A DNA stretch of 64,000 bases from Candidatus Bathyarchaeia archaeon (GTDB lineage: Archaea > Thermoproteota > Bathyarchaeia > Bathyarchaeales > Bathycorpusculaceae). A program made the position numbers and the translations under genes. This document shows, piece by piece, positions 2,826 to 18,177 of the stretch. The stretch spans positions 38,720 to 102,719 of the forward strand of contig JBEKTQ010000009.1 in the NCBI GenBank assembly GCA_049515895.1, in the 5' to 3' direction. Every line of letters starts with the position of its first letter. Positions within the stretch are counted from its first letter, which is position 1. Under the pieces are notes generated by a model. That model saw nothing but the letters and a program-made list of their open reading frames with translations. It had not been told where the DNA came from and searched no databases.

Positions 2826-2922
2826 ACCGCTAATTTAGGCATCTAAAGCTGGAAATAATCGAAGCCTTGTGTCTATTTCTCGAAAAGTGTTGACTTGAGG
2901 TTATAACAGCAAGTTATTTTGA

Positions 2923-3021: not shown

Positions 3022-3129
3022 TTTAAAATGGACACACTCAATTGAAAAAATATTTCCTTATACCAAATTTGCGACGCGAAATTATACAAAACCTTAATTG
3101 TTTTTGGGGTATAATCTCATTTTAGAATA

Positions 3130-4004: not shown

Positions 4005-4213
4005 TTCTTATGGGATTTAGCTTATTTTCGGAAAATAAGAAAAAGTAATATAATTTATTTAACCTACAAGTTTAACTTACTCTACTGAAAACAAGATAAG
4101 AAGGGCATAACAAGAAATTTTGTAACCATGTCGGCGGAAACCGTCATTTAAGTATACTTTCTTACCAATTCTAAATAGCAAACGCGTCAAATTCAACCAC
4201 TGATTTTCCAAGT

Positions 4214-4291
4214 TTAAGGTTCGTTTTCAGGATTGTCTTCTTCGCTATCATCGTCGTCGAAGGGATCATAAGGCTCTTCTTCTGTTCTCAA
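4214..4291 (-). CDS. 25-aa highly acidic micro-peptide (MRTEEEPYDPFDDDDSEEDNPENEP)
   Basis: TTG start with GGAGGT 8 nt upstream; 13 of 25 residues are D/E; lies directly downstream of the 4320-4769 nuclease. Confidence 0.5.
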   Translation of the reverse strand: MRTEEEPYDPFDDDDSEEDNPENEP

Positions 4292-4319
4292 ATAATTTGA
4301 CCTCCGTAATCCTTAATTT

Positions 4320-4769
4320 TTATTCACTCTTTGTGTTTTTGAGAAAATCTTCAAATTTTTCCTGTTCACCAAGACAATTATAGAAAGCGTGCTCCAAGTA
4401 TTTTCTCGTCCGCGGAACCAGCGATGCTCTCTCTCTATCAGCCCACCAAACATACTCAATGTTATGAGTTTTCAATATGTCTTGTCTGGTTTTATTTTTA
4501 AGTAGGGCGCACTTAAGCGCAACTTCGCACATCGAACATTTGTCATTACATTTCCTGGGCACAGGCGTTAGTCCACAAGCTTTGCATTCAATAGCGACTT
4601 TAGCTTTAGGCACGTAGAAATCGATTACAGCATGAGGAAGAAATGGAAATCTAACCTGCTTTTGTATTTCCCAATTGGGAAACACTTTTTTCAAGATTTG
4701 AAATGTAATTTCTTCCCACGCATCACCACTTACTTTTGGGGACTTGTTTGAATAATGAGGACCGTACAT
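4320..4769 (-). CDS. Small PD-(D/E)XK nuclease with a Cys-rich insert
   Basis: GDAWEE...KQVRF...IDFYV...AIECK motifs, followed by CG...CNDKCSMC...C. Confidence 0.65.
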   Translation of the reverse strand: MYGPHYSNKSPKVSGDAWEEITFQILKKVFPNWEIQKQVRFPFLPHAVIDFYVPKAKVAIECKACGLTPVPRKCNDKCSMCEVALKCALLKNKTRQDILKTHNIEYVWWADRERASLVPRTRKYLEHAFYNCLGEQEKFEDFLKNTKSE

Positions 4770-4810
4770 TTCACGCTAACCTCGTCTCAGAACAATCTTA
4801 TTTTAGTGAG

Positions 4811-6097
4811 TTATTCTTTGTCTGTTATTTCTCGTCTAATACAATAGGTAATTTCTTTTATGTAAATTTTCAGCTTTGCCAAGTCATGAGGAGAAACATG
4901 CAGCCCTCTATGGACAATGTCGTTTCTTATCGGACTTGCCTCTCTCAGTTTAACCAGTATTCCTTGCCGGTCAGGAAAATACTCTTTGAAAACCTGTTTC
5001 CAGTTGTCCCTTTTTTCGATAATAGCAGCATAATCAGAGAAATCCGCGTAAAATATTGGATCAAGGTTTTCAATGTCCGTTAAAGCTCTTTTTTCGCGGA
5101 TTTCTTTTTTAACTTGGCAGCGTTCTACTACATCTGGTGGAACTTGTAGTTTCCACCAATCATGCCCAAACATTTTTTCCATTACTCTGCTTATAAAAAG
5201 CCTAAAGTTCTCTTCAAAGCCCGTGATCTCGCAATAGCCCTCGGTTGGAATCAACGACACCAGATTTCGGTCAGATGCATATTTTTCAAATTTGGCTTTT
5301 ACTTCACTAACTATATCAAGGTTGCTTATCGCAATTTCGAGTGATGGGTCTAACTGAATTGCTTTATTGAATTCCTTTTCCGCCAATTCAGGTTGATGGG
5401 TGTTTGCATATGCGGCGCCCAAGTTGTTATGAGACGCAGCCGAGTCCGGATCTAACTCAACCCATTCTAAATACTCGTCTCTTGCATTAATCCAAAGTCC
5501 GTTCTCAAAGAATATGTCGCCCAAGTTGGAGTGAAACAGCCAATTGTTTGGTTCAAGCTTTATAGCCTCTTTGAGCTCGCCAATGGCTTTTTCCTTTAGT
5601 CCGAGCTTTAGATGGATAAGTCCAAGTAAATTGCGGGCGAAAGCTGTAACTTTTATTTTCTTTGATTTCTCGAGGTACTCTTTTGCTTTTTTGGTGAAGC
5701 CTTTGTCAAATAGCGCTTTGCCCATGTTCGTAAGTAAAACATAGTCGTTTGGGTTGCGTTTTAATCCTTTCTCAAAATATTTGATAGCATTTGTGAAGTC
5801 GCCTTTTTCACTATAAAGTGTTCCGAGACGCTCGTATGCGATTTCATCTTTGGGCGCAGCTCTGATAGCTTTTCTGTAGTATTTTTCAGCTTTGCCTGTC
5901 AATCCCTTTTCATGATACGCCTGGCCTAAATTTGTGTAAATGTATGCGTCCCTAAATCCTAAAAAGACAAGCTGTTCAAAAATAATAATTGCTTCGTCAA
6001 GCATCCTTTTTTCTGCAAGTTCCGCGCCAACCTTTAACAGTTTTTTGCAAGCTATTGGAATTGCCAGATCAATTGGCACGTCTCGCCGATTTACCAT
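4811..6097 (-). CDS. TPR-repeat protein with C-terminal Swt1-like HEPN domain
   Basis: About 7 TPR motifs (YTNLGQAY, YERLGTLY, SHNNLGAAY). The C-terminal FEENFRLFI...WW...YADFSDY...W..F...RNDIVH carries the HEPN RxxxxH motif. Confidence 0.8.
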   Translation of the reverse strand: MVNRRDVPIDLAIPIACKKLLKVGAELAEKRMLDEAIIIFEQLVFLGFRDAYIYTNLGQAYHEKGLTGKAEKYYRKAIRAAPKDEIAYERLGTLYSEKGDFTNAIKYFEKGLKRNPNDYVLLTNMGKALFDKGFTKKAKEYLEKSKKIKVTAFARNLLGLIHLKLGLKEKAIGELKEAIKLEPNNWLFHSNLGDIFFENGLWINARDEYLEWVELDPDSAASHNNLGAAYANTHQPELAEKEFNKAIQLDPSLEIAISNLDIVSEVKAKFEKYASDRNLVSLIPTEGYCEITGFEENFRLFISRVMEKMFGHDWWKLQVPPDVVERCQVKKEIREKRALTDIENLDPIFYADFSDYAAIIEKRDNWKQVFKEYFPDRQGILVKLREASPIRNDIVHRGLHVSPHDLAKLKIYIKEITYCIRREITDKE

Positions 6098-6299
6098 TTA
6101 CCCTGATTCTTCCTATATTGAAGAAACGCCCTTATATCAATAAAAGCTTGCTCATCAAAGCGCGCCGAAAAATTGAGGTTTAGGCTCAAAGGTTATTCTT
6201 CTAGCCTGATGACAGCCTTGAAGCAATCTTACCACGCGCGGCAAATCTAAGGTTTTGCAGTTCTTGTTCCTGAAAATATTATAAGCGATTCATTATATA

Positions 6300-8282
6300 G
6301 TGAAACACATGGCAAAATGTGACCGTTGTGAAGCAGAAGCAACACTTCCTTTTGAGTGCCGCTTTTGCGGTGGTCACTTCTGTATGTCACATAGACTTCC
6401 AGAAAATCATCTTTGCCCTAATCCTCCTGGGAGTTCACCATTTGGTTCTTATGAGTCAAAGAAAAATATTATCGCCCCAAGTCAACAAAATGCAGCCCCA
6501 ATCGAATCAGAAGCTGATTTGCCTTTCAAAAAGAAACCACCATATTCACATAATCCCAAAAAGCGGAAATCATTTCCATATAGGAAAATGATTGGCGCAT
6601 CATTTTTAATAATAGTAATAATTATTTCAATTGTTGCTGCATTGGATTGGAGCAAGATATTAATTCTTCCCATAGGTTTTCAGTCGTCATCGAATCCTTC
6701 AGTGACCCCTCAACCATCTAAAGAGGGCAAAACCGCTTCAGATTACAGTCAGTCTGTTTTAACTATGAGCCCTCAGGGGATCACTATTACAAAGGATACC
6801 AGTTTTACACCTATTATCAACGTGGAATATGAGATCTTTGCAGACGGGCTACCTTTTGACCTAAATTCGATCCCAGACCCAAACGTAATTATTAACAGGC
6901 TAGATTGGAACGACTTCTCCATTACTCTTAATGGCAGTCCAATTCAGTTTGAACATAACGAATATTCCGCGTTGGTTTCGTGCGATCTCAGTTCCGTGAT
7001 AAACGATGCTGGTTCATCTCCTTTGAATATCATAGTCCGATATCGAGACAGCAGTATCTCCAAAGAACTTGTGACCACACGAAGCAGCTTCACAATATCT
7101 GACATAGACAATTACTGGAATAGCAGCACCATAACAATCGGAGCACAAGGGTCAGCGTATTCATCAATGCAACAAGTTTTTGACCAATATGCAACCGTAA
7201 TTTCAGGCTTCGTATTACTCCAAGATCACATTGGCGCGCTAAAAAATGACTTTACTTCACTTGACAACTGGTATTCTTGGCTGTACACCCTGCGAGAATC
7301 AACCTCACCCGAGGCAGCATGGACTTCGTTCCAGCAATATGTAAAATCAAACGGCGTAGAAGACCTAGTTGATAAGACATGGACCGAAATAAATGCCCTT
7401 ATCAAAGCAATTCCTCAATTGGAAAACATCACTGAGAATTATCCGGATGTTCTAAGCCAAGCGCTTGTAAATGTAGCTTTGCAGTCTGTATCTTCACCTT
7501 ATGCTTTGTTGTCTACGCTTAATACCTTAGAATCTAGTTCAAGTGGAAGCGACATAGAAAGCGCCGTTAATACAGCAACAACAGTTCTTCAGGCAGTTTA
7601 TGTTCAGCTCGCCTCCGACTTTTTCGGATGGGTAAAGAGCGCGTCACCATTCAGTTACGAAAGCGATGTAGCAAATGCTGCTCAGTTTTATATGGATAAT
7701 TTAAATGACATCCGAAGTCTGAAAGGCTTTTACGGAGTGTCTTTTGGTCCAATAATAGAAACTAACGAACAATTCCAGAATGTGGGGCAAAGAGGAGTAG
7801 CTTGGTGGCCTACAATCTACAGTGAGGTAATCATAGGATCAATGTCTGACGAGATGCCTTACTGCGCTTCACCTCAAGCTCCTACTGCCTTTCCGATGAC
7901 CGAGGTTCACTGGATCTACAACTTGGGGCCGAACTCGGGAACAACACAAGTCTTTACGGTTTACTTAGCCACAGAAAGTATAGTCCAGAATTATTTAACC
8001 GCAAATGGTTTTGTTGTCAGCAACTTACCCCCAACTGCGTCGGAAAATGCAAGCTTTGGACAGGAACGCTTAATTTCAAAGTATTTTCTTCAACAACTAA
8101 ATGAAAATGGAAATTGTTACATCGAAAACTCAAAACTTTCACAAGACATAATTAAACTATCGAACTTCTTCCATGACTTTAACTCAATTTCAAACGGAAT
8201 TGGGGTAGCAAGAGAATACGGTTCACCGGAAAACCTGCTGGCAGAATTAGACCAAAACACAGTTCAAATTAACCTTAGTTAA
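6300..8282 (+). CDS. AN1-type zinc finger membrane protein with large extracellular domain
   Basis: N-terminal CDRC...PFECRFCGGHFCMSHRLPENHLC is zf-AN1. One TM helix near aa 98-116. Likely start ATG 6309. Confidence 0.75.
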   Translation: MKHMAKCDRCEAEATLPFECRFCGGHFCMSHRLPENHLCPNPPGSSPFGSYESKKNIIAPSQQNAAPIESEADLPFKKKPPYSHNPKKRKSFPYRKMIGASFLIIVIIISIVAALDWSKILILPIGFQSSSNPSVTPQPSKEGKTASDYSQSVLTMSPQGITITKDTSFTPIINVEYEIFADGLPFDLNSIPDPNVIINRLDWNDFSITLNGSPIQFEHNEYSALVSCDLSSVINDAGSSPLNIIVRYRDSSISKELVTTRSSFTISDIDNYWNSSTITIGAQGSAYSSMQQVFDQYATVISGFVLLQDHIGALKNDFTSLDNWYSWLYTLRESTSPEAAWTSFQQYVKSNGVEDLVDKTWTEINALIKAIPQLENITENYPDVLSQALVNVALQSVSSPYALLSTLNTLESSSSGSDIESAVNTATTVLQAVYVQLASDFFGWVKSASPFSYESDVANAAQFYMDNLNDIRSLKGFYGVSFGPIIETNEQFQNVGQRGVAWWPTIYSEVIIGSMSDEMPYCASPQAPTAFPMTEVHWIYNLGPNSGTTQVFTVYLATESIVQNYLTANGFVVSNLPPTASENASFGQERLISKYFLQQLNENGNCYIENSKLSQDIIKLSNFFHDFNSISNGIGVAREYGSPENLLAELDQNTVQINLS

Positions 8283-8371
8283 AACAATAGCGCACGCACA
8301 AGTGACCTGTCGGTCAGGAACGCTCACTAACGTGCTAATGTGAATCATGTTCACCTTTTCGTTTATGAAGA

Positions 8372-8425
8372 TTTAAACTAAAATTTGTAAACCCGTATTT
8401 TTTCCTACTAAACGTGAATGTAAAC
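8372..8425 (+). repeat. 54-bp dispersed intergenic repeat, copy 1
   Basis: TTTAAACTAAAATTTGTAAACCCGTATTTTTTCCTACTAAACGTGAATGTAAAC; 52/54 identical to 16082-16135. Confidence 0.9.
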
Positions 8426-8542
8426 TAACCCTCATCGCTTAGTTCGATTTACAAATTAAGGCTTGATTATTGGTTATTTATGTAAATAGTTCCCAAAAGA
8501 TAGCCTTCGTCTTTATTTTTTTAATTTTTAAAATGAGTCAAA

Positions 8543-8570
8543 ACAAGTCTTAAACCTGCTTAGCATATAA
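8543..8570 (+). promoter_or_regulatory. Conserved extended promoter motif, copy 1
   Basis: ACAAGTCTTAAACCTGCTTAGCATATAA upstream of the 8617 CDS. Confidence 0.7.
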
Positions 8571-8616
8571 CAGCCTAATATCACAAAACATTAGGGGAAG
8601 TTGAACGTATTATCGG

Positions 8617-10056
8617 TTGGTACTTATGAAGAGAACAGCGTTAGCACTAGCATTCATCTTTGCCTTCCTAGCATCCACTATGATTGTAGTTACTACTGAA
8701 CATTTTGGATCAGCTCAAAGCGGCACAAACGTAAGCTACATAATCAGCACAGATACCACTTGGACTCAAGGAAACAGTCCATACAATTTTACAGGAAATG
8801 TACTTATCCCCACTGGAGTTACCTTAACAATAGGCAATGGTGCCACCATTGACCTCAACAACTATTACCTAGAAGTTAATGGCACATTAATTATTCAACC
8901 AGGAGCAACCATTAACATTGGGCTCATAGGAGATGGCATAGATGTTTATGGCACTATGTCCGCTGAAGGCACAAGCGCAAATCCAATTCAAATAATTGGC
9001 AGCGTGCAGGGTCACATTATTATTGCCTTCTATTCCGCTGTTACCTTCTTTCCCTCAAGTATTAGCTGGAACCCAGTGACAAACTCCGGCTCTCTTATAG
9101 AAAACACCATTTTTAACCAGACAGGATTGGAAGTGCAAAGCGGAACAAGAATTATCAACAGCACGTTCCTAAGTGGAGGATTAACGGTAGAAAGCGCCTC
9201 ACCCACAATCGTAAACAATGACATTGCAACTGGTCTGAGCGTTATTCAAAACCCTAACATCCCAACCAACGCCACTGCAATACAGCCTGAAATTTCAAAT
9301 AATACCATTGGAGGCGGTCTCTATGTCAGCGCTGGAGGCGGCATTGTCGACGATAATGTCATTTCTGGCCTAAATGTAAACGATGAATATGGAGCCCCTG
9401 TGTCAACTTTAATCATCCGTAACCTGATAACCAGCGCTACAACGGGAATTTCTTGCAGCATACAAAGCGCCTACAACAATAAAGCAACTATCGAGAACAA
9501 TACAGTCACAAATAATACGGTAGGAGTTCAGATAGGAAGCACAAACGTGCCATCCATAATTAACAATAACATTTATGGAAATTCATACAACGCAAAACTC
9601 TCTGGAGTATCCTCACAAATTAGTTTACCAAATAATTGGTGGGGAACAACCGATGTTCAAGCAATCAACCAAACAATGTACGACTTCAAATACGACTTCA
9701 CCCTTGGCATAATAAACTTCTTACCCATTTTAACCACCTCAAATCCCCAAGCCCTACCTAACCCAACTGCACCAACAACAACTCCAACAACTTCACCTAC
9801 TCCAACTCCAACAACTTCACCTACTCCAACTCCAACAACTTCACCTACTCCAACTACAACAGCAACCGCAACACCAACACCTCTCCAGACAGTAACTTCA
9901 TCCCCAACATCAACCTCAAGCCCAAGTTCTACACAATCCCCAACTTCAACCCCAACCGCTCCAGAGTTTCCAACTTTGGCAATTTTGCCGCTTTTCACAG
10001 TGATTATACTGCTATCAATCGTATTTGTAAGGAAGAGAATACCAAAAAATCGATGA
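8617..10056 (+). CDS. Cell-surface beta-helix (NosD/PbH1-like) glycoprotein with Thr/Pro linker and PEF-CTERM-like anchor
   Basis: Signal peptide; DTTWT..NSPY; NNTVTNN-type repeats; NNWWGT; PT-rich linker; C-terminal APEFP-TM-RKR. Confidence 0.85.
   Translation: MVLMKRTALALAFIFAFLASTMIVVTTEHFGSAQSGTNVSYIISTDTTWTQGNSPYNFTGNVLIPTGVTLTIGNGATIDLNNYYLEVNGTLIIQPGATINIGLIGDGIDVYGTMSAEGTSANPIQIIGSVQGHIIIAFYSAVTFFPSSISWNPVTNSGSLIENTIFNQTGLEVQSGTRIINSTFLSGGLTVESASPTIVNNDIATGLSVIQNPNIPTNATAIQPEISNNTIGGGLYVSAGGGIVDDNVISGLNVNDEYGAPVSTLIIRNLITSATTGISCSIQSAYNNKATIENNTVTNNTVGVQIGSTNVPSIINNNIYGNSYNAKLSGVSSQISLPNNWWGTTDVQAINQTMYDFKYDFTLGIINFLPILTTSNPQALPNPTAPTTTPTTSPTPTPTTSPTPTPTTSPTPTTTATATPTPLQTVTSSPTSTSSPSSTQSPTSTPTAPEFPTLAILPLFTVIILLSIVFVRKRIPKNR
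9781..9852 (+). repeat. 3 x 24-bp tandem repeat encoding (TPTTSPTP)3
   Basis: ACTCCAACAACTTCACCTACTCCA x3 inside the CDS. Confidence 0.9.
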
Positions 10057-10273
10057 TCCTCAAGGCTTTTGTGGCAAGTTCATGGATTTTGATGTGAGCC
10101 CAATTGAAGTGGATATTTTTAAGTAGCAAAAATCGCAAAGCAAACAACAGACGTTGCCACGACCGATCTTTCCAATAAAATACCCAATTTATCAGTAAAA
10201 TAACGCTAAGAATGAACAGTTTCAAAAGACTTAAATTAAAACTGTATCTATTCAGAATTAACGAGGGTTAGCG

Positions 10274-10669
10274 ATGAAAACAGAAACTATTGTTGTGAAT
10301 CTAAGACCTATCGACCCTGACAAGCTGGAAATAATAAAGGTACCTGAAACTAAAGAAACATTCAAGTTTAATTTATTATTAGACGCAGTGCCTGATTCTG
10401 TTTGGAAGGATTTCTTTAATGATGAATTACGGAAAAAACCGATACCGTTAGATTCCCAAATCGATTTTGGAGGAATGAGCATTTATATAGTCAGCACACC
10501 CAGCAAAATCAATGATATAATTGAGTTGGTAAAAAAGCTCGTGAATTCCACTAACGAGCACGTACAGCAGCACAACAAGAGATTGGCGGAAGGAAACGAG
10601 ATTGAGAGAAAAATGAATACGGATGACGGAGAAAAAATCAAACGGATGCGTGAAGCATTAAAGAAATAG
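10274..10669 (+). CDS. Hypothetical protein with C-terminal coiled coil
   Basis: 131-aa ORF with a promoter-like AAAAGACTTAAAT at 10224. Confidence 0.65.
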   Translation: MKTETIVVNLRPIDPDKLEIIKVPETKETFKFNLLLDAVPDSVWKDFFNDELRKKPIPLDSQIDFGGMSIYIVSTPSKINDIIELVKKLVNSTNEHVQQHNKRLAEGNEIERKMNTDDGEKIKRMREALKK

Positions 10670-10697
10670 AACAGATTTCTGACAGCCAAATCAGCCA

Positions 10698-10725
10698 AAA
10701 AGTCTTAAATCTACAAGTTACAGAA
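10698..10725 (+). promoter_or_regulatory. Conserved extended promoter motif
   Basis: AAAAGTCTTAAATCTACAAGTTACAGAA. Confidence 0.65.
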
Positions 10726-10747
10726 TAAAATTATTCAGGGTTTTGTA

Positions 10748-11095
10748 TTGGATACACAAGGAGTTGCTGTCGCTTTAGAAAAGACTTACGTGCTTGTTGT
10801 ACGAGTGGTTAATTTTCAAAGAAATATACCAATCAAGAATGTTAACGTTAAAGTTTTCAGATTGGAAAAGGCACCAATAGCGCTCCAACAATGGGCTGAA
10901 AATCTCAAAAATGGAGTTCCATTTAAAAAGTTGATGCTCTCGATGAATACCGATAATGATGGTAACGTAACTGCTGAACTTGCAGAGGGCTCTTATGAAG
11001 TGAAAGTCGAAAAATACGGTTTAATTAATCCTTTTGAATTAACGCAAAATGACAGAGTTCTCTTTATTGAACCGAAAAAGCATTGGTGGCAATAA
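10748..11095 (+). CDS. Carboxypeptidase-regulatory-like (Cna-B/prealbumin fold) domain protein
   Basis: PIKNVNVKV...TDNDGNV..L.EGSYEVKVEKYG. Confidence 0.6.
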   Translation: MDTQGVAVALEKTYVLVVRVVNFQRNIPIKNVNVKVFRLEKAPIALQQWAENLKNGVPFKKLMLSMNTDNDGNVTAELAEGSYEVKVEKYGLINPFELTQNDRVLFIEPKKHWWQ

Positions 11096-11119
11096 GTCTT
11101 AAATCTGTGTAGCGTAGGA
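11092..11119 (+). promoter_or_regulatory. Conserved extended promoter motif, overlapping the upstream stop codon
   Basis: ATAAGTCTTAAATCTGTGTAGCGTAGGA; its TAA is the stop codon of 10748-11095. Confidence 0.75.
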
Positions 11120-11141
11120 TAGAAGAACTGATACTATTAAA

Positions 11142-11474
11142 ATGCCAATAAATGAAGATGAACTAGAAAAGATTGAAGAACCTAAATGGAAGAGAGTTCT
11201 CGCTAAGATGGAAGAGGGAAAATTCTATTCAATAACAGAAATGAGCCACATGTTAGTTGGAATCCGTCTTTTTGAGGAAGATAGTTTTAAACAATATTTA
11301 CCTGAAAAGGTTCAAGGTAAGAAGAAATTATCGTTTGAAGAGGTTATTGAACCATTGGTCGAATTCTTAAGTGATACAACGTATATAGATTCTTTCCTAC
11401 AATCTCAAGTTGCAGTAGGGAATTTAATCGAAGGTTTCAAAGGCGATTTACCCTATTATGGGAAAAAAATGTAA
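11142..11474 (+). CDS. Hypothetical protein, possible winged helix
   Basis: 110-aa ORF; VLAKMEEGKFYSITEM...GNLIEG..GDLPYYG. Confidence 0.6.
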   Translation: MPINEDELEKIEEPKWKRVLAKMEEGKFYSITEMSHMLVGIRLFEEDSFKQYLPEKVQGKKKLSFEEVIEPLVEFLSDTTYIDSFLQSQVAVGNLIEGFKGDLPYYGKKM

Positions 11475-11538
11475 TTGAGAACACTACGACTATTATAAGA
11501 CTTTCTTACTCGCAGTATTAGCCCAGTTTTCATTGAAG

Positions 11539-11566
11539 ATAAGTCTTAAATCTGAATAGCATAGAA
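11539..11566 (+). promoter_or_regulatory. Conserved extended promoter motif
   Basis: ATAAGTCTTAAATCTGAATAGCATAGAA. Confidence 0.75.
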
Positions 11567-11582
11567 AGTGAACTGACTGATT

Positions 11583-11765
11583 ATGAAATGTCCTGCTTGC
11601 AATCAAATACTTCAACGAATAGAGGGTGTATGTGGCGAGTACTTCTGTATTAATCCTGAATGCCTTGAAAACAAGAAAATACACATGCAGGGATATGCAG
11701 AGTTTTACGGACTAACCCAAGCAGAAATATACGAAAACTATCATAGAGCACTCGCCAAAAAATAG
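11583..11765 (+). CDS. Small zinc-ribbon protein
   Basis: CPAC...YFCINPEC; 60 aa. Confidence 0.65.
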   Translation: MKCPACNQILQRIEGVCGEYFCINPECLENKKIHMQGYAEFYGLTQAEIYENYHRALAKK

Positions 11766-11831
11766 GAAGGAGAAATAGCCAAACACTAAAATAAGGTAAT
11801 TAAGATACAAATAAGGTTGAAAAAACAACCT

Positions 11832-11975
11832 GTGGAAAATTTGAATGACGATTTTTGTCCAAAGGGTCCTTATTGTGGTAGCGCTCGCCTTGAAGAAGAT
11901 GAAAATATCGTTAAGTGTCTTGATTGTGGCATGGGGACGTATAAGGCAGGTAAGCATAAGGCAGGTTCCAGATAA
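11832..11975 (+). CDS. 47-aa TFIIB-type zinc-ribbon-like peptide, possibly degenerate
   Basis: Manual translation: MENLNDDFCPKGPYCGSARLEEDENIVKCLDCGMGTYKAGKHKAGSR*; below the ORF-track length cutoff. Confidence 0.5.
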   Translation: MENLNDDFCPKGPYCGSARLEEDENIVKCLDCGMGTYKAGKHKAGSR

Positions 11976-12061
11976 TTACAAGAAAATGGCATCGTTTTCA
12001 TTGAGTTTGTTATTAATTGGCAAGGCACTACAGAGATATTTGGTTTCTTCTTCTAATTTTG

Positions 12062-12088
12062 ATAAGTCTTAGTCTGCACAGCGTAGAA
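12062..12088 (+). promoter_or_regulatory. Conserved extended promoter motif (1 nt shorter)
   Basis: ATAAGTCTTAGTCTGCACAGCGTAGAA. Confidence 0.65.
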
Positions 12089-12265
12089 ATAGCCCTATCA
12101 GCAAGACTTGTTAGACCTAATAGTATGGAGATGTGAACAAGCGAGTCAAAAAAAAATAGCGAGTAAATGGAAAAGAAGGACTTATTATCTTAATCGTTGA
12201 GTATAATGATGTGGATAATGCTGTTCGTAAGTTTTGTGAATGTAAGAATTGTTGGGTAGAGTGAT

Positions 12266-12484
12266 ATGGAAAACTTTGAGAGATTAAGTAACAAAGTTCT
12301 CATTAGAACCTGCCCCTGTGGCGTCGTATTCAAAACGTATGACCCAAAAAAAGCGTACCATGCAAACAGTTGTAGGATAATTTACGTTAGGAAAAGATTT
12401 AGAGCCATAGTCCAAAGAAGGAAACTAAAGCAAAAGAAGCTTGAAGAGAAAACTAACGCGGGCGCGATATGGTCTGTTGTTTAA
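12266..12484 (+). CDS. Small basic zinc-finger-like protein
   Basis: RTCPCGVVF....KKAYHANSCR followed by a basic tail. Confidence 0.55.
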   Translation: MENFERLSNKVLIRTCPCGVVFKTYDPKKAYHANSCRIIYVRKRFRAIVQRRKLKQKKLEEKTNAGAIWSVV

Positions 12485-12545
12485 TCGCTTTATAAGGAAG
12501 GTAGTGCAGTAGAGGGCAGTTGCGATGATTAAATGGTGATGGAAA

Positions 12546-12833
12546 ATGTCGGAAAAATCTAAAATTGTTTTCGTTGGAAATAAGATGCCTATGGACTATG
12601 TTCTGGCGATTATTACAGGGCTGTCGGCGAGTGATGATAAAGAGATAACTTTGAAGGCTAGAGGACAAGCAATAACTACAGCTGTTGACGCAGCTGAAAT
12701 AACGAGAAACCGCTTCCTAAAAGACCTGAAAGTACACAAAATTGTGATAGGAACAGAAGAGATGCCGCCAAGAGAGGGCGAAACCAGAGCACGGATGGTT
12801 TCAACAATTGAAATAATGCTTACAAAAGAGTAG
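12546..12833 (+). CDS. albA: DNA/RNA-binding protein Alba
   Basis: VFVGNK.PMDYV...ITLKARGQAITTAVDAAE...VSTIEI; GGTGA RBS upstream. Confidence 0.95.
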   Translation: MSEKSKIVFVGNKMPMDYVLAIITGLSASDDKEITLKARGQAITTAVDAAEITRNRFLKDLKVHKIVIGTEEMPPREGETRARMVSTIEIMLTKE

Positions 12834-12945
12834 GAAAACCTTCGAAACACGTGCTGCCCTTGTCACGATATTATGTGTTGAAGAATGTTGTCTAATTTGC
12901 CGAAGACCACAAATGGCAGGACAACTTCCTCTTAATCGGTGAGGG

Positions 12946-12998
12946 TTAAACTAAATTTGGTAAACCCGTAAACTTGCGGGCTAAATTAAAATTTAATC
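12946..12998 (+). repeat. 54-bp dispersed repeat, diverged copy 2
   Basis: First 25 bp are 23/25 identical to the other copies (TTAAACTAAATTTGGTAAACCCGTA). The central 10 bp differ, then CTAAA..AAT.TAA.C follows in register. Confidence 0.75.
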
Positions 12999-13147
12999 CC
13001 CAAACCCACAACACCAATACTGCACTACACCATACCACAAACCACAACGACACAAAACACACAAGCCAGTAGCTCCACGAGCGTCTCCCAGTCTGTCTGT
13101 CAATGTCCGTCAGCCTCTCCTATGTTCGGTAGAAAATTTTCGAGAAG

Positions 13148-13265
13148 ATAAGTCTTAAATTTGGACAGCTCAGAAAAAGTTTATGAAAAACTTATCGTTA
13201 GAAGGCGTGTAAGAATATCAATTCATTTCTTTAATTCATGAAACTTAAATCTGCACAGCATCTAA
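13148..13265 (+). promoter_or_regulatory. Two tandem copies of the conserved promoter motif (13148, 13238)
   Basis: ATAAGTCTTAAATTTGGACAGCTCAGAA and ATGAAACTTAAATCTGCACAGCATCTAA. Confidence 0.65.
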
Positions 13266-13305
13266 TAAACCAATCAGCGCTAATCCGTCAAGTGACAAGT
13301 GAGCT

Positions 13306-14490
13306 ATGCTAAACAGGAAAAAATTGGATTCGGACATATTTCATTTAGAAGTAAAGGACGATGAGCTATTTCTCGGAGACAAGATAGAGGGAACTTTAAG
13401 GATAATATCCAACCAAGAATTTGATATTGAAAAGATTTGGATTAATTTAAGATGCCAAGAAATCAAGGAAAAAAAGAATGCTGCTCTTTATGATGACGTT
13501 GTTCAGATTAGCGACAATGTGCACATCAGGCTTGGAGATAAAAAAGAATTCCTCTTCGCAATGAAGTTGCCGTTTGTTGGAAGAGAAACATTTGACAGCT
13601 TAAACCACAGTATCCAATGGTTAGTGTATGGGTACATTAAGATAAAAGGAAGCAAAGAACCCATAAGCGCAGAAGGCGGCGGTTTTATTCTTGTTGCCAA
13701 GCCAAGAGTATTAGTTAAAGAAGCGAGTTCCAATAGCACGAACGTAACCGAAACATTTCATATCGATTATGTTGGTGGTCAATGCTTCAAAAATGCTGAT
13801 TGCTTATTTGGAATTGTTAATGTTACAAAAGACATTTCCGCAGCAGTTGTCCGATTATACCCTCCTGGCACTATCCTTAAAATGAAGTCAGGAAAAAATA
13901 AACTCATAGCCGTGAAAGAGGCAATTATTGAAATTTCAACGGGAGCAAAATATGATTTTAAAGAATTGGGAATGTGGTCAAAGTGGCCAGAGCCCAGAAC
14001 AATCCATTACTCAGAACTTAAAAATAATAATGAGCACTCTCTAAATGTCTCTTCAGAAATTTCTTGTAAATTCGTACTTTTGGAATCCCCAACGTTTGTG
14101 GAGATAGTGTTTGAAAATGAATTAGTTTACAGTTTTTTCAGAAATAAATTTCTGAACAAATCTGTAAAAACTGGTGATACAATCGTTTTAAGTATTAGAG
14201 GACATAATTTGCCGTTTTATGTATGTTACTCTTATCCAGAAGAGTTCGTGAGGATTGATGGAAATACACATATCTCATACATAATTTCCAGCAATCAAAC
14301 TACGAAAATATATCCAACCCTTATTTCAAATAAGTACACAGTAAGAATGTATCCATTTCCACCTGAAGAATGCATGCCAAAGATTCCAAGTCGATATAAA
14401 GATATTGTCCAAGGTGGTCATGATAAACAATACGTGACGACAATCCAAGACCATCTCGATCTTAGTATACCTCTGGCGACAATAATTTGA
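13306..14490 (+). CDS. Arrestin/SpoOM-like N-domain fused to a CDC48 domain-2-like module; may extend to ~14641 via frameshift
   Basis: N-terminal GDKIEGTLRI...INLRCQE...KEFLFAMKLP...IQWLV. C-terminal LNKSVKTGDTIVL..RGHNLPFYV..SYPEEFVRIDGNTHI. An alternate frame after ~14486 continues FEYRSEHPF...WVKDV*. Confidence 0.55.
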   Translation: MLNRKKLDSDIFHLEVKDDELFLGDKIEGTLRIISNQEFDIEKIWINLRCQEIKEKKNAALYDDVVQISDNVHIRLGDKKEFLFAMKLPFVGRETFDSLNHSIQWLVYGYIKIKGSKEPISAEGGGFILVAKPRVLVKEASSNSTNVTETFHIDYVGGQCFKNADCLFGIVNVTKDISAAVVRLYPPGTILKMKSGKNKLIAVKEAIIEISTGAKYDFKELGMWSKWPEPRTIHYSELKNNNEHSLNVSSEISCKFVLLESPTFVEIVFENELVYSFFRNKFLNKSVKTGDTIVLSIRGHNLPFYVCYSYPEEFVRIDGNTHISYIISSNQTTKIYPTLISNKYTVRMYPFPPEECMPKIPSRYKDIVQGGHDKQYVTTIQDHLDLSIPLATII

Positions 14491-14685
14491 GTATCGCTCT
14501 GAGCACCCTTTCTCGAACGTTCTTTTGTCGACCGCTGAACAAACCGAAGAGAGCGTTTTTAATGCTTTAGGTTTGCCTGTACCAAGACCTGAGGAAAAAG
14601 ATGTTATTGGTGGCAAACCCATTTGGGTAAAAGATGTCTAACGATTTAGTTCAGAGTAAGACTTTTTCACGTCTTTTTGGCTAAA

Positions 14686-15006
14686 TTACCGGCAGTATTT
14701 ATAGAATTTTGCATAATCAGTTTCTGCAATCATTTTACCGTCTTTTTCAATTGCAACGCATGAAAAAATATAGTCTGTCCCTTCACAATTGAACCCTACT
14801 TCGGGTATTATTCCGCCGCAGTTTGGACAGTGTTCACCGGCGTTGACCTTTTCTTTGAGGAATTTTCTTATGAGCTCCACTATTTTCTTTGGCGCAACTG
14901 AATTGGGGCCATCCAAATAGAAAATTCTAATAAGGTGGTCTTCATCCTTTTCTTCAGCTTCTTGTTTTTCTTTCATAAGTGATATACTCCATGGAAGGTG
15001 TAACAA
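14686..15006 (-). CDS. Hypothetical protein with a CPNCGG motif
   Basis: ORF co-oriented and adjacent to 15012-15473. Confidence 0.5.
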   Translation of the reverse strand: MLHLPWSISLMKEKQEAEEKDEDHLIRIFYLDGPNSVAPKKIVELIRKFLKEKVNAGEHCPNCGGIIPEVGFNCEGTDYIFSCVAIEKDGKMIAETDYAKFYKYCR

Positions 15007-15011
15007 TTATG

Positions 15012-15473
15012 CTAGTTTTTGGATGTGTCGGAATTCTTCGACAGGACCAAAATCCAATCTGAGTTTATCTTTTTATGATTGTAATCTCTATCGACTATTT
15101 GTTTACATAGTTTTGGAAAAGCTTCATACGCATTTCTAAGAAGGAAAAGATACAAGTCTGAATTCGGGTGGTCGACAAAGGCATTGTTTATGTTTCGAGT
15201 TGAGCCGCACCTTAGTTCTACGCCTAATTCTCTTTCGCAATCTCTGACTATAATATCAGCGTCAAACCCAGTTTTTCCAATTACGCTAGCATAGATTTCT
15301 GAATCTATCAATGCCACTATTGTTTCCATTTGGAACCAAAGCTCGAACCCACCACCGAATTCAGCTATCATGTCTAGCTTATGCGCCATGTCAGGACTTG
15401 AAAAATGCTCACATACAATATTTAACAAATTCATTTCAAACTCATTCAAATAATTCTTTCCCCAAGGACTCAT
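15012..15473 (-). CDS. Hypothetical, PD-(D/E)XK-fold-like protein
   Basis: GFELWFQME...ADIIV...GVELR. Confidence 0.5.
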   Translation of the reverse strand: MSPWGKNYLNEFEMNLLNIVCEHFSSPDMAHKLDMIAEFGGGFELWFQMETIVALIDSEIYASVIGKTGFDADIIVRDCERELGVELRCGSTRNINNAFVDHPNSDLYLFLLRNAYEAFPKLCKQIVDRDYNHKKINSDWILVLSKNSDTSKN

Positions 15474-15505
15474 AATCCAGTTTCTTAATGGCAGGTCAAA
15501 CTGCG

Positions 15506-15868
15506 TTAAGGGTTTAGTGCGCGTTTTATGATTTTGGTTTCCTGGTTTTTCACTTCTTCGTAGGCATCGATAATATCTAAATCATTGCAGAGTTTTTTTA
15601 AAACGCTTTCAGAACCCAGTGTGGCGAGCCCTATCATTGCAAAAGCCACGAGCAGTTCATTGTAATCCAACTCCATATCATAGCGGCGCAAAAGGTCAGC
15701 CCTAAGAGACCTACGAAAAACAGTATCAAATGCCTTTGGAACAGTTATCGTCCTTTTAACTCTCTCTTTTCCAAACTTTCTTATAATTTCAGGAACGGCT
15801 TTTTTAACAGCTTCATAAAATTCGTCAATATTCTCGTATGGTACTATATCCTCTTGCATGACAGCCAA
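15506..15868 (-). CDS. Putative ribbon-helix-helix-like regulator
   Basis: KRTITVPKAFD...DYNELL strand-helix-helix pattern; palindromic TACGTACGTA upstream (~15886). Confidence 0.5.
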   Translation of the reverse strand: MAVMQEDIVPYENIDEFYEAVKKAVPEIIRKFGKERVKRTITVPKAFDTVFRRSLRADLLRRYDMELDYNELLVAFAMIGLATLGSESVLKKLCNDLDIIDAYEEVKNQETKIIKRALNP

Positions 15869-16081
15869 CTGCCATTAAGGTATATACGTACGTAGACGCG
15901 TACGGGTATTTACATCTTTCGAAGATTAACGTAAGGATTTACTCATTTTGTCTATGTCGACGATTCCGACATAATAGTTAAACGCCGCCAAAGTTAGTCC
16001 TGTCCAAGAGCGAACGGCTGCTATGCTCCAGCCTTCGTCAAAGAAGTTTAGCGCGCGGAACTTGTAGGCTCCTACCAATAG

Positions 16082-16135
16082 TTTAAACTAAAATTTGTAA
16101 ACCCGTATTTTTTCCCACTAAACTTGAATGTAAAC
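16082..16135 (+). repeat. 54-bp dispersed repeat, copy 3
   Basis: TTTAAACTAAAATTTGTAAACCCGTATTTTTTCCCACTAAACTTGAATGTAAAC. Confidence 0.9.
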
Positions 16136-16260
16136 CTCACTCTCCGCATCCATTATGGGGTTTCCTTGCATCTCGCGGAGTAACCGATCCAAAGTATGTC
16201 ATTGAAGGCCATTACTGACTGGCGCAAGCACTCGGCAAGTCGATCCTCATTGATTGGGAC

Positions 16261-16392
16261 TTATCTTTCGGACTGTAAAAACGACGCCTCTCTGAACTCT
16301 TTCAAAGCCTCGTCGTACGACTGCTGTTTATAAAATGCCTGACCCCTTTCAACATGGTCACTCGCGCTTTCGTTCGCTGACGAAGCTACCAT
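16261..16392 (-). pseudogene. Truncated TPR protein remnant
   Basis: MVASSANESASDHVERGQAFYKQQSYDEALKEFREASFLQSER*: one TPR, then a stop. Confidence 0.5.
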
Positions 16393-17086
16393 AGTAACCT
16401 GACCCAAAACATATTATTAGACTTGGCAGTTCTTATAACTTGTTTTCTCTGCAAGCCCGGGCCTTCTGTTGCTGGAAATTGGAGAAACAAAGCGCACGCA
16501 GAGCATATGCCATTTGACTACCGCGCGCTAACAAGAATTGAGTCCACCGGGAAGACCATACGAAACGTTTGGGAGTATTTTCGGTCCAACTCAATGGCAA
16601 GAAAACGGTTGAACGATTAGATTTCAGGGGCTTTCATGCGTGAAATTTAAACGTGAATTCACGTCTAACCAAGCAAGTCAAGTTTTCTTGAGACATTAAA
16701 CGGTTAGGCTTATCATAATGTACATTCAAAGTTTTTGTAATCCTGTGGTCTCTGAGAATGGCTCCAAAACTTTTTAACATCGAGACTGTTAACTAAAACA
16801 AAGGCGGAATGTGTTACGACAAAAAAAGGAAAAAAAGTTGTTATACTTCAACTTAATAGTCCAAGTACTTCATTTTTTCCCGACCAGTTGCAGCTGCGAA
16901 AATTTTAAACGGCATTCAAGTCTTTCGCTAACCATATAGAACTAAAATCGAAATATAGATACCCTTCATAGGAATGAGAGTTTAAACGCTCAAGTGAAAT
17001 CAAAACCTGCGCTTAAATCAAAGTCAATTTTCTACGCTTCTACGCGTAAAATGAGCGTAAACTGAGCTAAACTGATGGTTAGGGGA

Positions 17087-17204
17087 TGGTGCAGGGGGTG
17101 GGATTTGAACCCACGAACCTCTGGAGGATAGGCTCCTGAAGCATGCGCGCCGCTCTCTGGTAAAGGGCGGTTCTACGCCTTTGACCATGCTCGGCGACCC
17201 CTGC
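17087..17204 (-). tRNA. tRNA-Leu(CAG) with a 30-nt non-canonical intron at 29/30 (17143-17172); CCA encoded
   Basis: Acceptor GCAGGGG/CCCCTGC-ACCA and T-loop GTTCAAATC. Removing the intron restores the anticodon stem TAGGC-TTCAGGA-GCCTA. Long variable arm. Confidence 0.93.
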
Positions 17205-17230
17205 GTTGCATTGCTGTCAAGTTTGAGAAG

Positions 17231-17304
17231 GGCCGGGGCAGGGATTTGAACCCTGGCAAAAGGCTCCACAGGCCTCTAGGCTACCAAGCTACCTCACCCC
17301 GGCC
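17231..17304 (-). tRNA. tRNA-His(GTG) with encoded G-1
   Basis: G-GCCGGGG/CCCCGGC-C; anticodon arm GAGGC-CTGTGGA-GCCTT; GTTCAAATC. Confidence 0.95.
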
Positions 17305-17391
17305 GCAATCCCTAATATTTTCGGGTTTTTTTGACCTCGGCCACTTTTTGCTGCGATGAGCTTTGGCTTCTTTAGATTCATAGCATACACC

Positions 17392-17873
17392 TTATTTTCG
17401 TTTACGGAAGATTTTGCCGCCATCATTGTACTCTCCGGTAATGTACTCAAAACCTACGTCGACCAGTTTGCAGGCGTCTTCAGCAGTGAAGGCCAGGCGC
17501 GTTATGAATTGGTCGTTTGGCAGATCCATCACCCGTAACGGTCTTTGTTTCCGCCACAGCCCAAATTTTTCGCTCCTAAAGCGCATATTTGGCGAGTCCT
17601 GTTCTGTATTCTAACTCTAATATAATTTTCCGAGAATTTTTTGCCGCAGTCATTGCATGCGAAGGTCTGGGTTTCCTCGCCGGTGCTTAATCTTCTTGGG
17701 CCGTTAAGATCCATGCTTCTGCTGTTACAGTCGGGACATGATGGCCTGCGATCTGACTGAGATTCATTTGGGAGCGCTCCGAGGCCAGGAACGGATTCTC
17801 CGTTTCTGACTTCGGTATTGCCAAATATGCCTGTTGGAGCAAGCGCCTTTCCCCGATCCTCAGTCTTAATCAT
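17392..17873 (-). pseudogene. Tyrosine integrase remnant: N-terminal zinc ribbon plus C-terminal tail, catalytic core missing
   Basis: CPDCNS...FACNDCGKKFS...RQICALGAKNL joined out of frame to EDACKLVDVGFEYITGEYNDGGKIFRKRK, which I recognise as the terminus of archaeal (Bathyarchaeia-type) integrases. No R-H-R-Y core is present. Confidence 0.7.
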
Positions 17874-18177
17874 TTAATCACCCGCTTTCGGTAATTCATG
17901 GAGGGCGCGAGATGTCGTCTTCGCCGGTGACCGGATGCTTCACTTTGTCGTCCCAATTGATCACTTGATTTGTATGAACAGTTGAGCTGATGTCAACCAG
18001 GAGTGTCTTAGGCGATCAACGTTTGCCTTTTTTTTGGGGTCTATTTCTTTTGTTTACTCTCTTCCTAAAATTACATTAAAGGAAATGAGGCAAGAGAATT
18101 TACACCTTTTTTGCATCTTACAATTAATGCAAAGACGTAATCTTAAATTCTCTTTCTCAGTACTCTATTGCGAAGGA

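Follow-up and report, generated by a model that had tools for sequence, protein, structure and literature searches.

A lineage-specific core promoter as a probable portable expression head on small accessory gene cassettes in a genus of Bathyarchaeia

A 64,000-nucleotide (nt) stretch of contig JBEKTQ010000009.1 from a Candidatus Bathyarchaeia archaeon (assembly GCA_049515895.1), referred to below as the window, carries between positions 8542 and 13268 an array of genes preceded by copies of one extended promoter-like motif, termed here the head. Judged in silico, this motif has the make-up of a complete archaeal core promoter that is specific to the lineage and includes translation-start signals, and we consider it probable that the motif serves small accessory gene cassettes, which form a floating pool, as a portable "expression head". 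Computational analysis showed the start-codon geometry of the heads, their common orientation, their restriction to one genus, the diversity of the genes behind them and the coincidence of breakpoints and contig joints with the head. What appears to be new is that the copies are chromosomal, genus-wide and present in dozens per genome, that they include the start signals and that there are signs of the promoter also being the exchange site.

An earlier inspection of the window (the original prediction) had described eight co-oriented copies of a 28-mer, ATAAGTCTTAAATCTGnAnAGCRTAGAA. Scanning for this pattern with up to 3 mismatches, against shuffled sequences, returned three matches (11092, 11539 and 13148; expected number, 0.00). 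A 14-mer core, AAGTCTTAAATCTG, allowing up to 2 mismatches, gave five matches on the plus strand (8545, 10700, 11094, 11541 and 13150); the mean in shuffles was 0.71, and none of 100 shuffles reached five. A 32-nt position weight matrix (PWM) made from the genome copies of the motif detected six sites and no further copy elsewhere in the 64-kb window. These scans confirmed that the repeat is real and far beyond chance. The count of eight was amended: six copies stood by PWM and the 12062 copy was retained as one with a damaged TATA box, but the site at 10224 was placed outside the motif family because the stretch AAAGACTTAAAT, a generic B recognition element (BRE) and TATA box, was all that it had in common with the family and its score was below 15. 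Partial copies proposed on the minus strand (approximately 11494 to 11504 and 14648 to 14667) fell under every threshold applied. An Rfam search of positions 6000 to 18000 with an E-value threshold gave no match on the motif, detecting only tRNA-His and a weak match to the tmRNA model. The sites are listed here; within a head, the first T of TTAAAT is position 0, and protein lengths are in amino acids (aa).

8542 to 8573, plus strand: motif copy 1, a diverged head, AACAAGTCTTAAACCTGCTTAGCATATAACAG (PWM score, 30.4), which precedes a 479-aa secreted beta-helix protein
10224 to 10250, plus strand: generic BRE/TATA-like site, not a member of the family (PWM score, <15), which precedes a 131-aa gene (10274 to 10669)
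10697 to 10728, plus strand: motif copy, a variant head with spacer ACAAGTTACAGAATAA (PWM score, 28.9)
11091 to 11122, plus strand: motif copy with a short leader, ..GAAGAACTGATACT..ATG, and the ATG at +43 (PWM score, 35.9)
11538 to 11569, plus strand: best motif copy of the window, with 0 mismatches to the predicted 28-mer (PWM score, 42.8)
12061 to 12091, plus strand: degenerate motif copy in which a 1-nt deletion spoils the TATA box (TTAGTCTG)
13147 to 13178, plus strand: motif copy that is not followed by an open reading frame (ORF) and that forms a tandem pair with the next copy, at a distance of 90 nt (PWM score, 36.6)
13237 to 13268, plus strand: weak motif copy before a 394-aa gene, with the ATG at +61 (PWM score, 21.5)

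The spacer of the degenerate 12062 copy, CTGCACAGCGTAGAAATA, was one mismatch from the consensus. Counted from the first T of TTAAAT, the start codon was 43 nt (10698), 43 nt (11092), 37 nt (11539) and 44 nt (10224) away, close to the approximately 33 to 40 nt from TTAAA that had been estimated for four copies; at the 8542 head, the start codon lay 67 nt past the TATA box.

The consensus of the head, GATAAGTC-TTAAATCT-GCATAGCGTA-GAAATAG, comprises 31 bases and was divided into four parts.

-8 to -1: BRE, GATAAGTC
0 to 7: TATA box, TTAAATCT
8 to 17: conserved spacer, GNANAGCRTA
18 to 24: A/T-rich element GAAATAG, near -10

For 191 distinct instances, drawn from this genome, six relatives and loci in Bathyarchaeia metagenome-assembled genomes (MAGs), information content was high from -8 to +28 only and was near zero beyond. 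Agreement per position was 97 to 100% in the TATA box and 55 to 99% in the BRE, frequencies that are inflated since the instances were selected on the core. The variable positions marked in the original prediction (GnAnAGCrTAGAA) were exactly those that varied across the 191 instances.

In 24 of 46 heads in this genome and in 54 of 97 heads in six relatives, the first start codon that begins an ORF of 35 aa or more lay 29 to 49 nt past the TATA box; starts nearer than 29 nt were absent from the 46 and present in 4 of the 97. The distances past the TATA box formed a sharp peak at 31 to 32 and a hump at 36 to 46. An ATG at +31/32 was present in 23% of the 191 instances versus 2.4% of 1,949 other TTAAAT sites, and an ATG at +20 to +28 was rarer at heads (7.9%) than at other TTAAAT sites (15.1%). 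Two types of head could thus be distinguished by their start signals: leaderless-type heads have the ATG at +31/32 and run on as ..AGCCTAAACATGG or ..GAAATAGCCTAAACATGG, and Shine-Dalgarno (SD)-type heads have a GAGGTGA ribosome site near +30 to +34 and an ATG at +36 to +46 and run on as ..GAAGAACTGAGGTGA-N-ATG. The 11091 leader lacks the GAGG ribosome site that is typical of the SD type.

Archaeal promoter maps place the centre of the TATA box at about -27, the BRE at about -33 and an A/T-rich proximal element (PPE) at about -10 (PMC5316973). With the TATA box centred about 27 nt before the start site, transcription is therefore predicted to start near +30, and with a start at +31 the sequence GAAATA (+18 to +23) occupies -13 to -8, the position of the PPE. 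On this predicted start, the +31/32 class has a leaderless mRNA and the other class a leader of 6 to 15 nt with a Shine-Dalgarno sequence. The only part of the head without a canonical role is the approximately 10-nt GCATAGCGTA between the TATA box and -10. The promoters of 36 tRNA genes had looser boxes of the AAAGC/TTTAAATA type, which represent the generic promoter of the organism, and no housekeeping gene with a strong copy of the motif was found, so that the head did not turn out to be a generic promoter upstream of housekeeping genes. Because a box that is almost identical, AATAAGTCTAAATCAGG, precedes the tRNA-Ser gene on contig C12 at the distance typical of such boxes, we infer that the BRE/TATA half is read by the ordinary TBP and TFB. 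AAGTC was the top 5-mer before TTAAAT (32 of 2,035 sites). The downstream half, CTGCATAGCGTAGAAATA, searched with up to 3 mismatches, was joined to the TATA half in 19 of 22 matches, and the other 3 had a different TATA-like box with the same leaderless layout. Folding of the head detected no hairpin (z-scores versus shuffles, +0.33 to +0.88). The start-codon geometry and the conservation from -8 to +28 thus upheld the claim of a promoter extending beyond the BRE and TATA box.

Genomes compared in this study are denoted by G-numbers and contigs by C-numbers; the present genome is G000 (3.18 Mb in 53 contigs), the window lies on its contig C9 and G003 is a one-contig relative. The motif had been thought to occur in this block only; at the genome scale, 16 contigs carried copies. 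The exact 14-mer core occurred 20 times in the genome. There were 67 PWM matches with scores of at least 12 versus 9 in a block-shuffled genome, and 45 with scores of at least 21 versus 0 in the shuffled genome. Matches with scores of at least 15 occupied approximately 18 places on the 16 contigs, often 2 to 4 in tandem and often near contig ends. The genome total is about 45 to 50 copies.

The distribution in the lineage was examined with a 20-mer pattern (up to 2 mismatches) in 41 genomes, for which the reversed pattern gave no match in any genome. The pattern was present in 14 of 24 other species of the genus, with 39 matches in G019, 16 in G016, 15 in G020, 12 in G013, 11 in G003, 8 in G004 and 1 to 4 in the others. 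Outside the genus, it was present in 1 of 16 genomes from the other families of the order, as one weak match. A search with an exact 26-nt IUPAC pattern of one genome per species (185,579 species) detected at least 117 loci, and all 80 titles listed among these were Candidatus Bathyarchaeota or Bathyarchaeia MAGs. At one 3-kb core locus, motif-rich genomes were 77 to 82% identical to G000 and the motif-less genome G008 was 74% identical; three other motif-less genomes had no match to this locus of G000. This single locus hints that the motif marks a subclade. In one literature search on Bathyarchaeia promoter elements, none of the papers among the matches listed mentioned Bathyarchaeia, and within that search we know of no description of the motif.

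The genes behind the heads were examined as a set of 94 proteins of at least 40 aa whose start codon lies within 75 nt of a head (25 from this genome and 69 from relatives). Their median length was 115 aa, and 55 of the 94 had no more than 120 aa. A transmembrane (TM)-like segment was predicted in 49 of the 94, compared to 36% of 2,332 control ORFs of at least 150 aa. The set fell into 76 BLAST clusters, of which 63 were singletons, and five proteins passed a curated Pfam cut-off: 1 of the 69 (NosD/beta-helix), 4 of 20 (PKD, GT2, BsuPI and NOV_C) and 0 of 5 in the window. PHROGs gave a match for 8 of 82 proteins, mostly to Ig-like or glycosyltransferase families, and PADLOC matched 0 of 85. 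The ratio of nonsynonymous to synonymous substitution (dN/dS) was 0.17 to 0.76 in 17 of 21 paralogue or orthologue pairs, with one pair at 1.4 and three saturated, and because of these values we regard the headed genes as real but weakly constrained.

Comparison of paralogous loci pointed to the head-plus-gene as a unit. Positions 10698 to 11122 of the window, consisting of a head, the 115-aa gene and the next head, were 95.5% identical to a locus on C7 and 89% identical to one on C24; the paralogy stopped at the end of the second head, after which each locus had a different gene. The variant head at 10697 is also found before these 115-aa paralogues on C7 and C24 and before the G003 orthologue, a distribution from which it is taken to be inherited along with the gene. 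Positions 11534 to 12018 and 12110 to 12452 aligned with C6, where the zinc-ribbon cassette was 88% identical; the 72-aa zinc-ribbon gene was 83% identical to both C6 and G004. Between the two aligned parts is the following segment.

12016 to 12109, plus strand: 94-bp segment missing from the paralogous C6 locus in a pairwise alignment, which carries the degenerate 12062 head

The flanks of this indel were ambiguous and TTGTTA-like; the remainder of the segment had no other match in the genome. A gene beginning "MSENN.." occurs on C6 and C24 with different preceding neighbours, joined in each case at a head. An all-versus-all comparison of 85 loci produced 96 alignments of at least 150 bp, in which 30 of 83 internal 5' ends fell at -20 to -1 of a head and 24 of 85 3' ends fell at 0 to +39 of the next head. 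Random placement would give approximately 2% per such bin, by a rough estimate.

Similar breakpoints were observed in Logan contigs from four peat or wetland metagenome runs, placed on positions 6000 to 17500 at 90% likeness. One joint, 11093>11541, had 14 shared letters and skipped the 110-aa cassette. Other joints were 11122>11537, 11567>11094, 13121>11535, which puts the zinc-ribbon cassette at the place of the 13147 head, and 11567>8572, which puts a consensus head directly onto 8572. Many loose contig ends were situated exactly at 11567, 11525 to 11534 and 11092, divergence was present at head edges and the summed contig depth was approximately 10-fold higher in the bin from 11376 to 11759. 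One X2 metagenome contig agreed with the window to 12065 and then had an intact TTAAAT head. The head before homologous genes could differ between genomes, being of the leaderless type in one and of the SD type in another, which shows that a head can be exchanged without its gene. The alternative offered in the original prediction of self-contained promoter-plus-gene cassettes fits the geometry, the breakpoints, the contig joints and the span of conservation.

Evidence of movement between species came from comparisons with relatives. Syntenic core DNA (20 kb of the window) was 71 to 77% identical between G000 and G003, apart from one 376-bp piece at 84%. In G003, the 115-aa cassette lay at 2.10 Mb and had an identity of 93%, its gene differing by a synonymous divergence (pS) of 0.098, the zinc-ribbon cassette was 89% identical (at 1.25 Mb) and an accessory Alba gene was 89% identical (at 1.74 Mb). 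The window cassettes are thus scattered and non-syntenic in G003. Among 26 cross-species alignments, 7 had an identity of at least 85% and the remainder were 63 to 82% identical. On these identities, some cassettes appear to have moved recently between species and others are as old as the species. The accessory Alba gene was 89% identical to the G003 copy and 85% identical to the G002 copy, compared to 71 to 77% for other Alba genes, and since these values exceed those of the other Alba genes it seems to travel laterally like the cassettes.

The mechanism that we propose for the portable head has three steps, given in falling order of confidence. The ordinary TBP and TFB would bind the BRE/TATA half, and transcription would start at about +30. 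The promoter-plus-gene would be the unit of duplication, loss by deletion, reordering, replacement and lateral exchange; the invariant 14 to 16 nt of the head would supply the crossover homology, and DNA arriving from congeneric species would take part as well, viruses being among its possible carriers. Finally, one putative sequence-specific factor would read the non-canonical spacer between the TATA box and -10, so that the cassettes would be co-regulated.

A number of observations weigh against the portable-head reading or parts of it. A search for RNA sequencing runs that contain positions 8400 to 14600 of the window listed none. In old families, the spacer has drifted (44 to 62% identical within a family, with a pS of approximately 0.6), so that recent copying, and not a binding factor, may explain much of its conservation. 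The spacer showed none of the dyad symmetry expected for a classical dimeric regulator, which bears on the co-regulation step, and no candidate regulator was found when TFB number and the zinc-ribbon protein were checked. A dedicated TFB paralogue was rejected as TFIIB repeats were present in all 41 genomes with a copy number that was unlinked to motif number; G019, with its 39 motif matches, had 4 repeat matches (approximately 2 genes), the same as the motif-less G005. The 60-aa zinc-ribbon protein was rejected as the regulator since it is present in only 3 of the 41 genomes. An identity of 14 to 16 nt is short for homologous recombination, although archaea are able to recombine on such lengths. 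The loci of the breakpoint analysis were chosen around heads, and since heads resemble one another and lengthen any alignment that reaches them, a part of the alignment ends is bound to fall near a head. A metagenome joint represents an existing arrangement and not an event, because contigs of 90% likeness may derive from paralogous loci or other strains. Of the cross-species alignments, 19 of 26 were diverged to the same extent as core genes. Core identity was compared for G000 versus G003, G016, G019, G013 and G008, and the G019-G004 pair, which has a cassette with 93.8% identity, lies outside that set.

A stronger form of the portable-head reading, which we put forward tentatively, is an integron-like cassette economy without an integron, in which a single unit of 31 to 45 nt would be promoter, translation start and recombination site. 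If this were true, any DNA behind a head would be expressed at once, and cassettes would be swapped by short homology between chromosomes, viruses and species. The heads would then constitute a currency of lateral exchange and a nursery of small, often membrane, proteins under one putative spacer factor. Should exchange indeed take place at the head, the system would parallel integron cassettes without needing a recombinase and would provide a concrete route for the spread, and perhaps the origin, of orphan genes in archaeal populations. Bathyarchaeia are abundant and uncultured, and to our knowledge nothing is known experimentally about their transcription signals; the motif is a sharply defined, testable promoter with two flavours of translation start. 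The head could serve as a genetic part, and it flags real small genes in unannotated DNA, including micro-proteins of 20 to 60 aa, membrane peptides and surface proteins.

Four further explanations were weighed. The first, that the heads belong to an integrated virus or plasmid and mark its early or anti-defence genes, with a strong early promoter and a repressor operator as in SIRV2 with Aca8 and with small genes for anti-CRISPR or anti-defence proteins, is in our judgement unlikely. It draws on a layout matching the conserved sequence around near-identical BRE/TATA boxes that precedes small unrelated genes in archaeal viruses (PMC11065993), on cargo that is small and dark and on neighbours of the window array, which adjoins a restriction-modification system and a TPR-HEPN gene. 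Copies were spread over 16 contigs, and in G003 the heads were present in islets of 1 to 4 genes without Pfam matches situated between housekeeping genes. The surroundings of one islet were thermosome, amidohydrolase and TIR-domain genes, the last being a further neighbour in favour of the regulon; those of a second were CBS, DUF4438, S26e, Alba and SerRS genes; and those of a third were MDH, OTCase and methyltransferase genes. In these three neighbourhoods, 18 of 50 ORFs, the headed ones included, had no family, and no integrase, transposase or capsid gene was detected within approximately 8 kb of the heads. The present genome had 12 matches to PF00589 tyrosine recombinases, none of which adjoined a cluster, the nearest being 22 kb away. 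Searches of phage and plasmid collections (INPHARED and PLSDB) with the 40-nt head gave no match. A further point in favour of the regulon is that three contigs in IMG/VR, two of them classed as provirus, had one head each; against it, such a single copy per viral contig is not the virus's own promoter set. These heads precede a 245-aa membrane ORF that is opposite to its neighbours (L012, 1501 to 2274); PHROGs gave one weak match among four proteins neighbouring the IMG/VR copy, "provirus" being the label of IMG/VR. Such a position resembles that of a moron, and cassettes might be carried in this way. The same headed membrane gene was also observed on contig C30 of G020 (L061). About half of the proteins are membrane or secreted, and some are large surface proteins, unlike known anti-CRISPR proteins; the PADLOC and PHROGs results also speak against the viral regulon. 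The regulon of one mobile element that had been suggested was thus not sustained, given the approximately 18 places on 16 contigs, the housekeeping neighbours, the lack of an adjacent integrase and the absence of phage or plasmid matches, and the anti-defence role was left without positive evidence after the PADLOC search of 85 proteins.

Vertical inheritance, with a chromosomal factor of the subclade binding the spacer, sites under selection and fast-evolving genes that do not move, is improbable. It is implausible that a 31-nt site with approximately 25 fixed positions arose independently in front of 76 unrelated families. Breakpoints and contig joints lie at the head, the identity of some cassettes between species is far above that of the core, cassettes are patchy (one is present in 3 of 41 genomes) and those of G000 and G003 are non-syntenic. 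What speaks for this explanation is that the spacer is at the usual site of archaeal repressor action, that the motif seems clade-structured at the one 3-kb core locus and that one diverged variant of the head has stayed with the 115-aa gene through inheritance.

It is highly improbable that the head is a miniature mobile promoter element, resembling Correia elements or miniature inverted-repeat transposable elements, which transposes before genes or into random DNA. Putative mobile promoters have been documented in prokaryotes (PMC3575422), and the head-bearing 94-bp segment that is missing at C6 and the tandem "empty" heads at 13147/13237 and C9:287/511 would be consistent with one. Conservation ends sharply at -8 and at +28, or at the ATG, however, and there are no terminal inverted repeats, hairpin, associated transposase or clear target duplication at the 94-bp indel, the rest of which is unmatched in the genome. 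The last explanation, that the repeat is an attC or attI analogue of a dedicated recombinase with a secondary role as promoter, can claim co-oriented arrays with one small unrelated gene per repeat, junctions inside the repeat and integrons reported in Archaea (10.1101/2022.02.06.479319), but it is barely credible given the lack of a single-strand hairpin or dyad symmetry, the absence of a tyrosine recombinase adjoining any array, the position of the repeat 5' of the gene at promoter distance rather than 3' and the many solitary copies.

The portable head has partial counterparts in known systems. In archaeal viruses (SIRV2 and others), highly conserved sequence flanks near-identical BRE/TATA boxes before small unrelated single genes (PMC11065993); the heads share with these early-gene sequences the conservation beyond the BRE and TATA box, the small, unrelated and unannotated genes and the suspicion of a dedicated repressor. 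Unlike the virus sequences in that account, the Bathyarchaeia copies are chromosomal, number 30 to 50 per genome, occur in many species of one cellular genus between housekeeping genes, have a cargo that includes large surface proteins and many membrane proteins and show a virus context for single copies only. Of two candidates considered for an Aca-like regulator, the 110-aa protein had a poor structural model and the zinc-ribbon protein is present in 3 of 41 genomes, and no such regulator was identified. The putative mobile promoters of Matus-Garcia, Nijveen and van Passel are defined by an identity of 80% or more across 50 nt or more within -150 to -50 and occur mostly in pairs; like the heads, they are near-identical upstream sequences that non-homologous genes share, both inside one genome and between related taxa (PMC3575422). 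In contrast, the Bathyarchaeia unit has 31 to 45 nt, reaches the start codon, occurs in dozens per genome, is archaeal and includes translation signals. It falls outside the formal definition of a mobile promoter, as the conserved span is 31 nt (approximately 45 nt with the start signals) at -45 to -1. Integron cassettes resemble the heads in their tandem co-oriented arrays, one small and mostly unknown gene per repeat, a patchy pool and junctions in the repeat. The heads differ in having no IntI beside the arrays and no attC hairpin, in being 5' of the gene and in being often solitary; the repeat itself is the predicted promoter, and each cassette would therefore be expression-ready, unlike those of integrons. 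The upstream homology box of the Borrelia erp/ospEF-related genes is a conserved promoter-bearing 5' region on unrelated surface-protein genes of many replicons, whose shuffling is thought to be recombinational. It is bacterial, longer and borne by prophages or plasmids, whereas the Bathyarchaeia genes are chromosomal and far more diverse.

The genes of the window array are as follows.

8617 to 10056, plus strand: 479-aa surface protein with a signal peptide, a NosD-like beta-helix, a Pro/Thr linker and a C-terminal PEFP and TM anchor
10748 to 11095, plus strand: 115-aa beta-sandwich-like protein with a CarboxypepD_reg match below the cut-off; the stop codon lies inside the next motif
11142 to 11474, plus strand: 110-aa orphan protein, all-helical in a poor AlphaFold2 (AF2) model (predicted local distance difference test score [pLDDT], 53)
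11583 to 11975, plus strand: zinc-ribbon micro-proteins of 60 aa (11583 to 11765) and 52 aa (11817 to 11975) with CxxC pairs; the 52-aa gene is without a head of its own
12266 to 12484, plus strand: 72-aa zinc-ribbon protein, an ORF approximately 200 nt past the degenerate head
12546 to 12833, plus strand: accessory (third) Alba paralogue without the motif (PF01918; E value, 7e-14)
13306 to 14490, plus strand: 394-aa protein, the N-terminal third of which is all-beta in a poor AF2 model (pLDDT, 48)

The presence of Alba inside the block, as noted previously, was confirmed by this PF01918 match, and the zinc ribbons could be recognized by their CxxC pairs. The label of a Cna-B-like protein goes back to the sub-threshold CarboxypepD_reg match of the 115-aa protein, and that of an arrestin-like protein came down to a sub-threshold Spo0M match of the 394-aa protein, which also had a CDC48_2 match below the cut-off. 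The NosD match of the 479-aa protein was itself sub-threshold (18.1 bits); its relatives with the same head are a NosD/Beta_helix protein of G003 and the protein at C23:53400. For the 115-aa gene, dN/dS was 0.37 to 0.76. The 110-aa protein, for which the wHTH-like label of the original prediction stays tentative, had five homologue clusters among 5.8 billion proteins, a six-row alignment for AF2 and no match in Pfam, PHROGs or PADLOC. The 394-aa protein had nine homologue clusters, most of them over approximately 60% of its length, and a nine-row alignment for AF2. The 60-aa zinc-ribbon protein was found in G000, G003 and G021, and the motif was located just upstream of the G003 and G021 copies. 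The 131-aa protein had only unnamed clusters in the ESM Atlas (0.93).

Several features of headed loci elsewhere were also observed. At C7:65937-66222 there is a rearranged copy of the 110-aa cassette in which an inverted part (94% identical to 11282-11490) adjoins a direct part (99% identical to 11203-11283). The large headed surface proteins at 9960-10056 of the window, C26:41335 and C23:53400 end in a Pro/Thr-rich linker, PEFP, a hydrophobic helix and a basic tail; the last three elements resemble what we take to be an archaeosortase-type C-terminal sorting signal. The "empty" heads at C9:1-560 and C26:8891-9521 are followed by conserved micro-ORFs of 32 aa (led by a Shine-Dalgarno sequence) and 20 aa (leaderless), both of which are identical in the two paralogous loci; a 39-bp indel, one end of which coincides with the 5' edge of a head, distinguishes the loci. 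A defence-like neighbourhood upstream of the window array, at 3 to 6097, comprises an N6/N4 DNA methylase, an HSDR_N/SeqA-like protein, a DpnII/MboI-type restriction enzyme and a TPR protein whose HEPN domain is Swt1-like. An AN1 zinc finger stands at the start of the 660-aa gene at 6300-8282, and a motif head was located 164 nt upstream of another AN1 protein, on C7.

A second repeat family, ..TTTAAACTAAATTTGTAAACC.GTA.TTTTT....TAAACGTGAATGTAAAC.., has approximately nine copies in the genome.

Second repeat family: window 8363 to 8425 and 16082 to 16135, with a variant at 12945 to 12975; C6:128119-128149; C24:19560-19623 and 25449-25577; C21, C32 and C12

Two copies, in direct orientation and 96% identical over 54 bp, bracket the window array. 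Copies are also present beside the C6 and C24 arrays, and metagenome contigs break there; no excision joint between copies of this repeat was seen in the metagenome contigs. A C/A-rich, almost G-free tract of approximately 100 to 150 nt was observed in the window (12980 to 13100) and on C6 (approximately 127905 to 128110), the order being second repeat, tract and then motif heads.

Outside the array, positions 17087 to 17204 (minus strand) probably contain an intron-containing tRNA-Leu that was missed by ARAGORN and that adjoins tRNA-His (17230 to 17303). The ends of this region match tRNA-Leu genes on C2 and C11, and Rfam gave only the weak tmRNA-model match there. Near the integrase at C9:24520, no att-like repeat of tRNA genes was detected. 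The only repeat, on the other side of tRNA-His, is an exact direct copy of 18 nt from the region at the 5' end of this tRNA gene (17289 to 17306); it is present 4 kb away, at 21255 to 21272, and the pair brackets KaiC-like ATPase and DUF1638 genes; the distal copy could be an att-like remnant. Five contigs of 2.7 to 3.7 kb (C48 and C50 to C53) had a G+C content of 55 to 60%, compared to 40 to 47% in the other 48 contigs, and are probably mis-binned.

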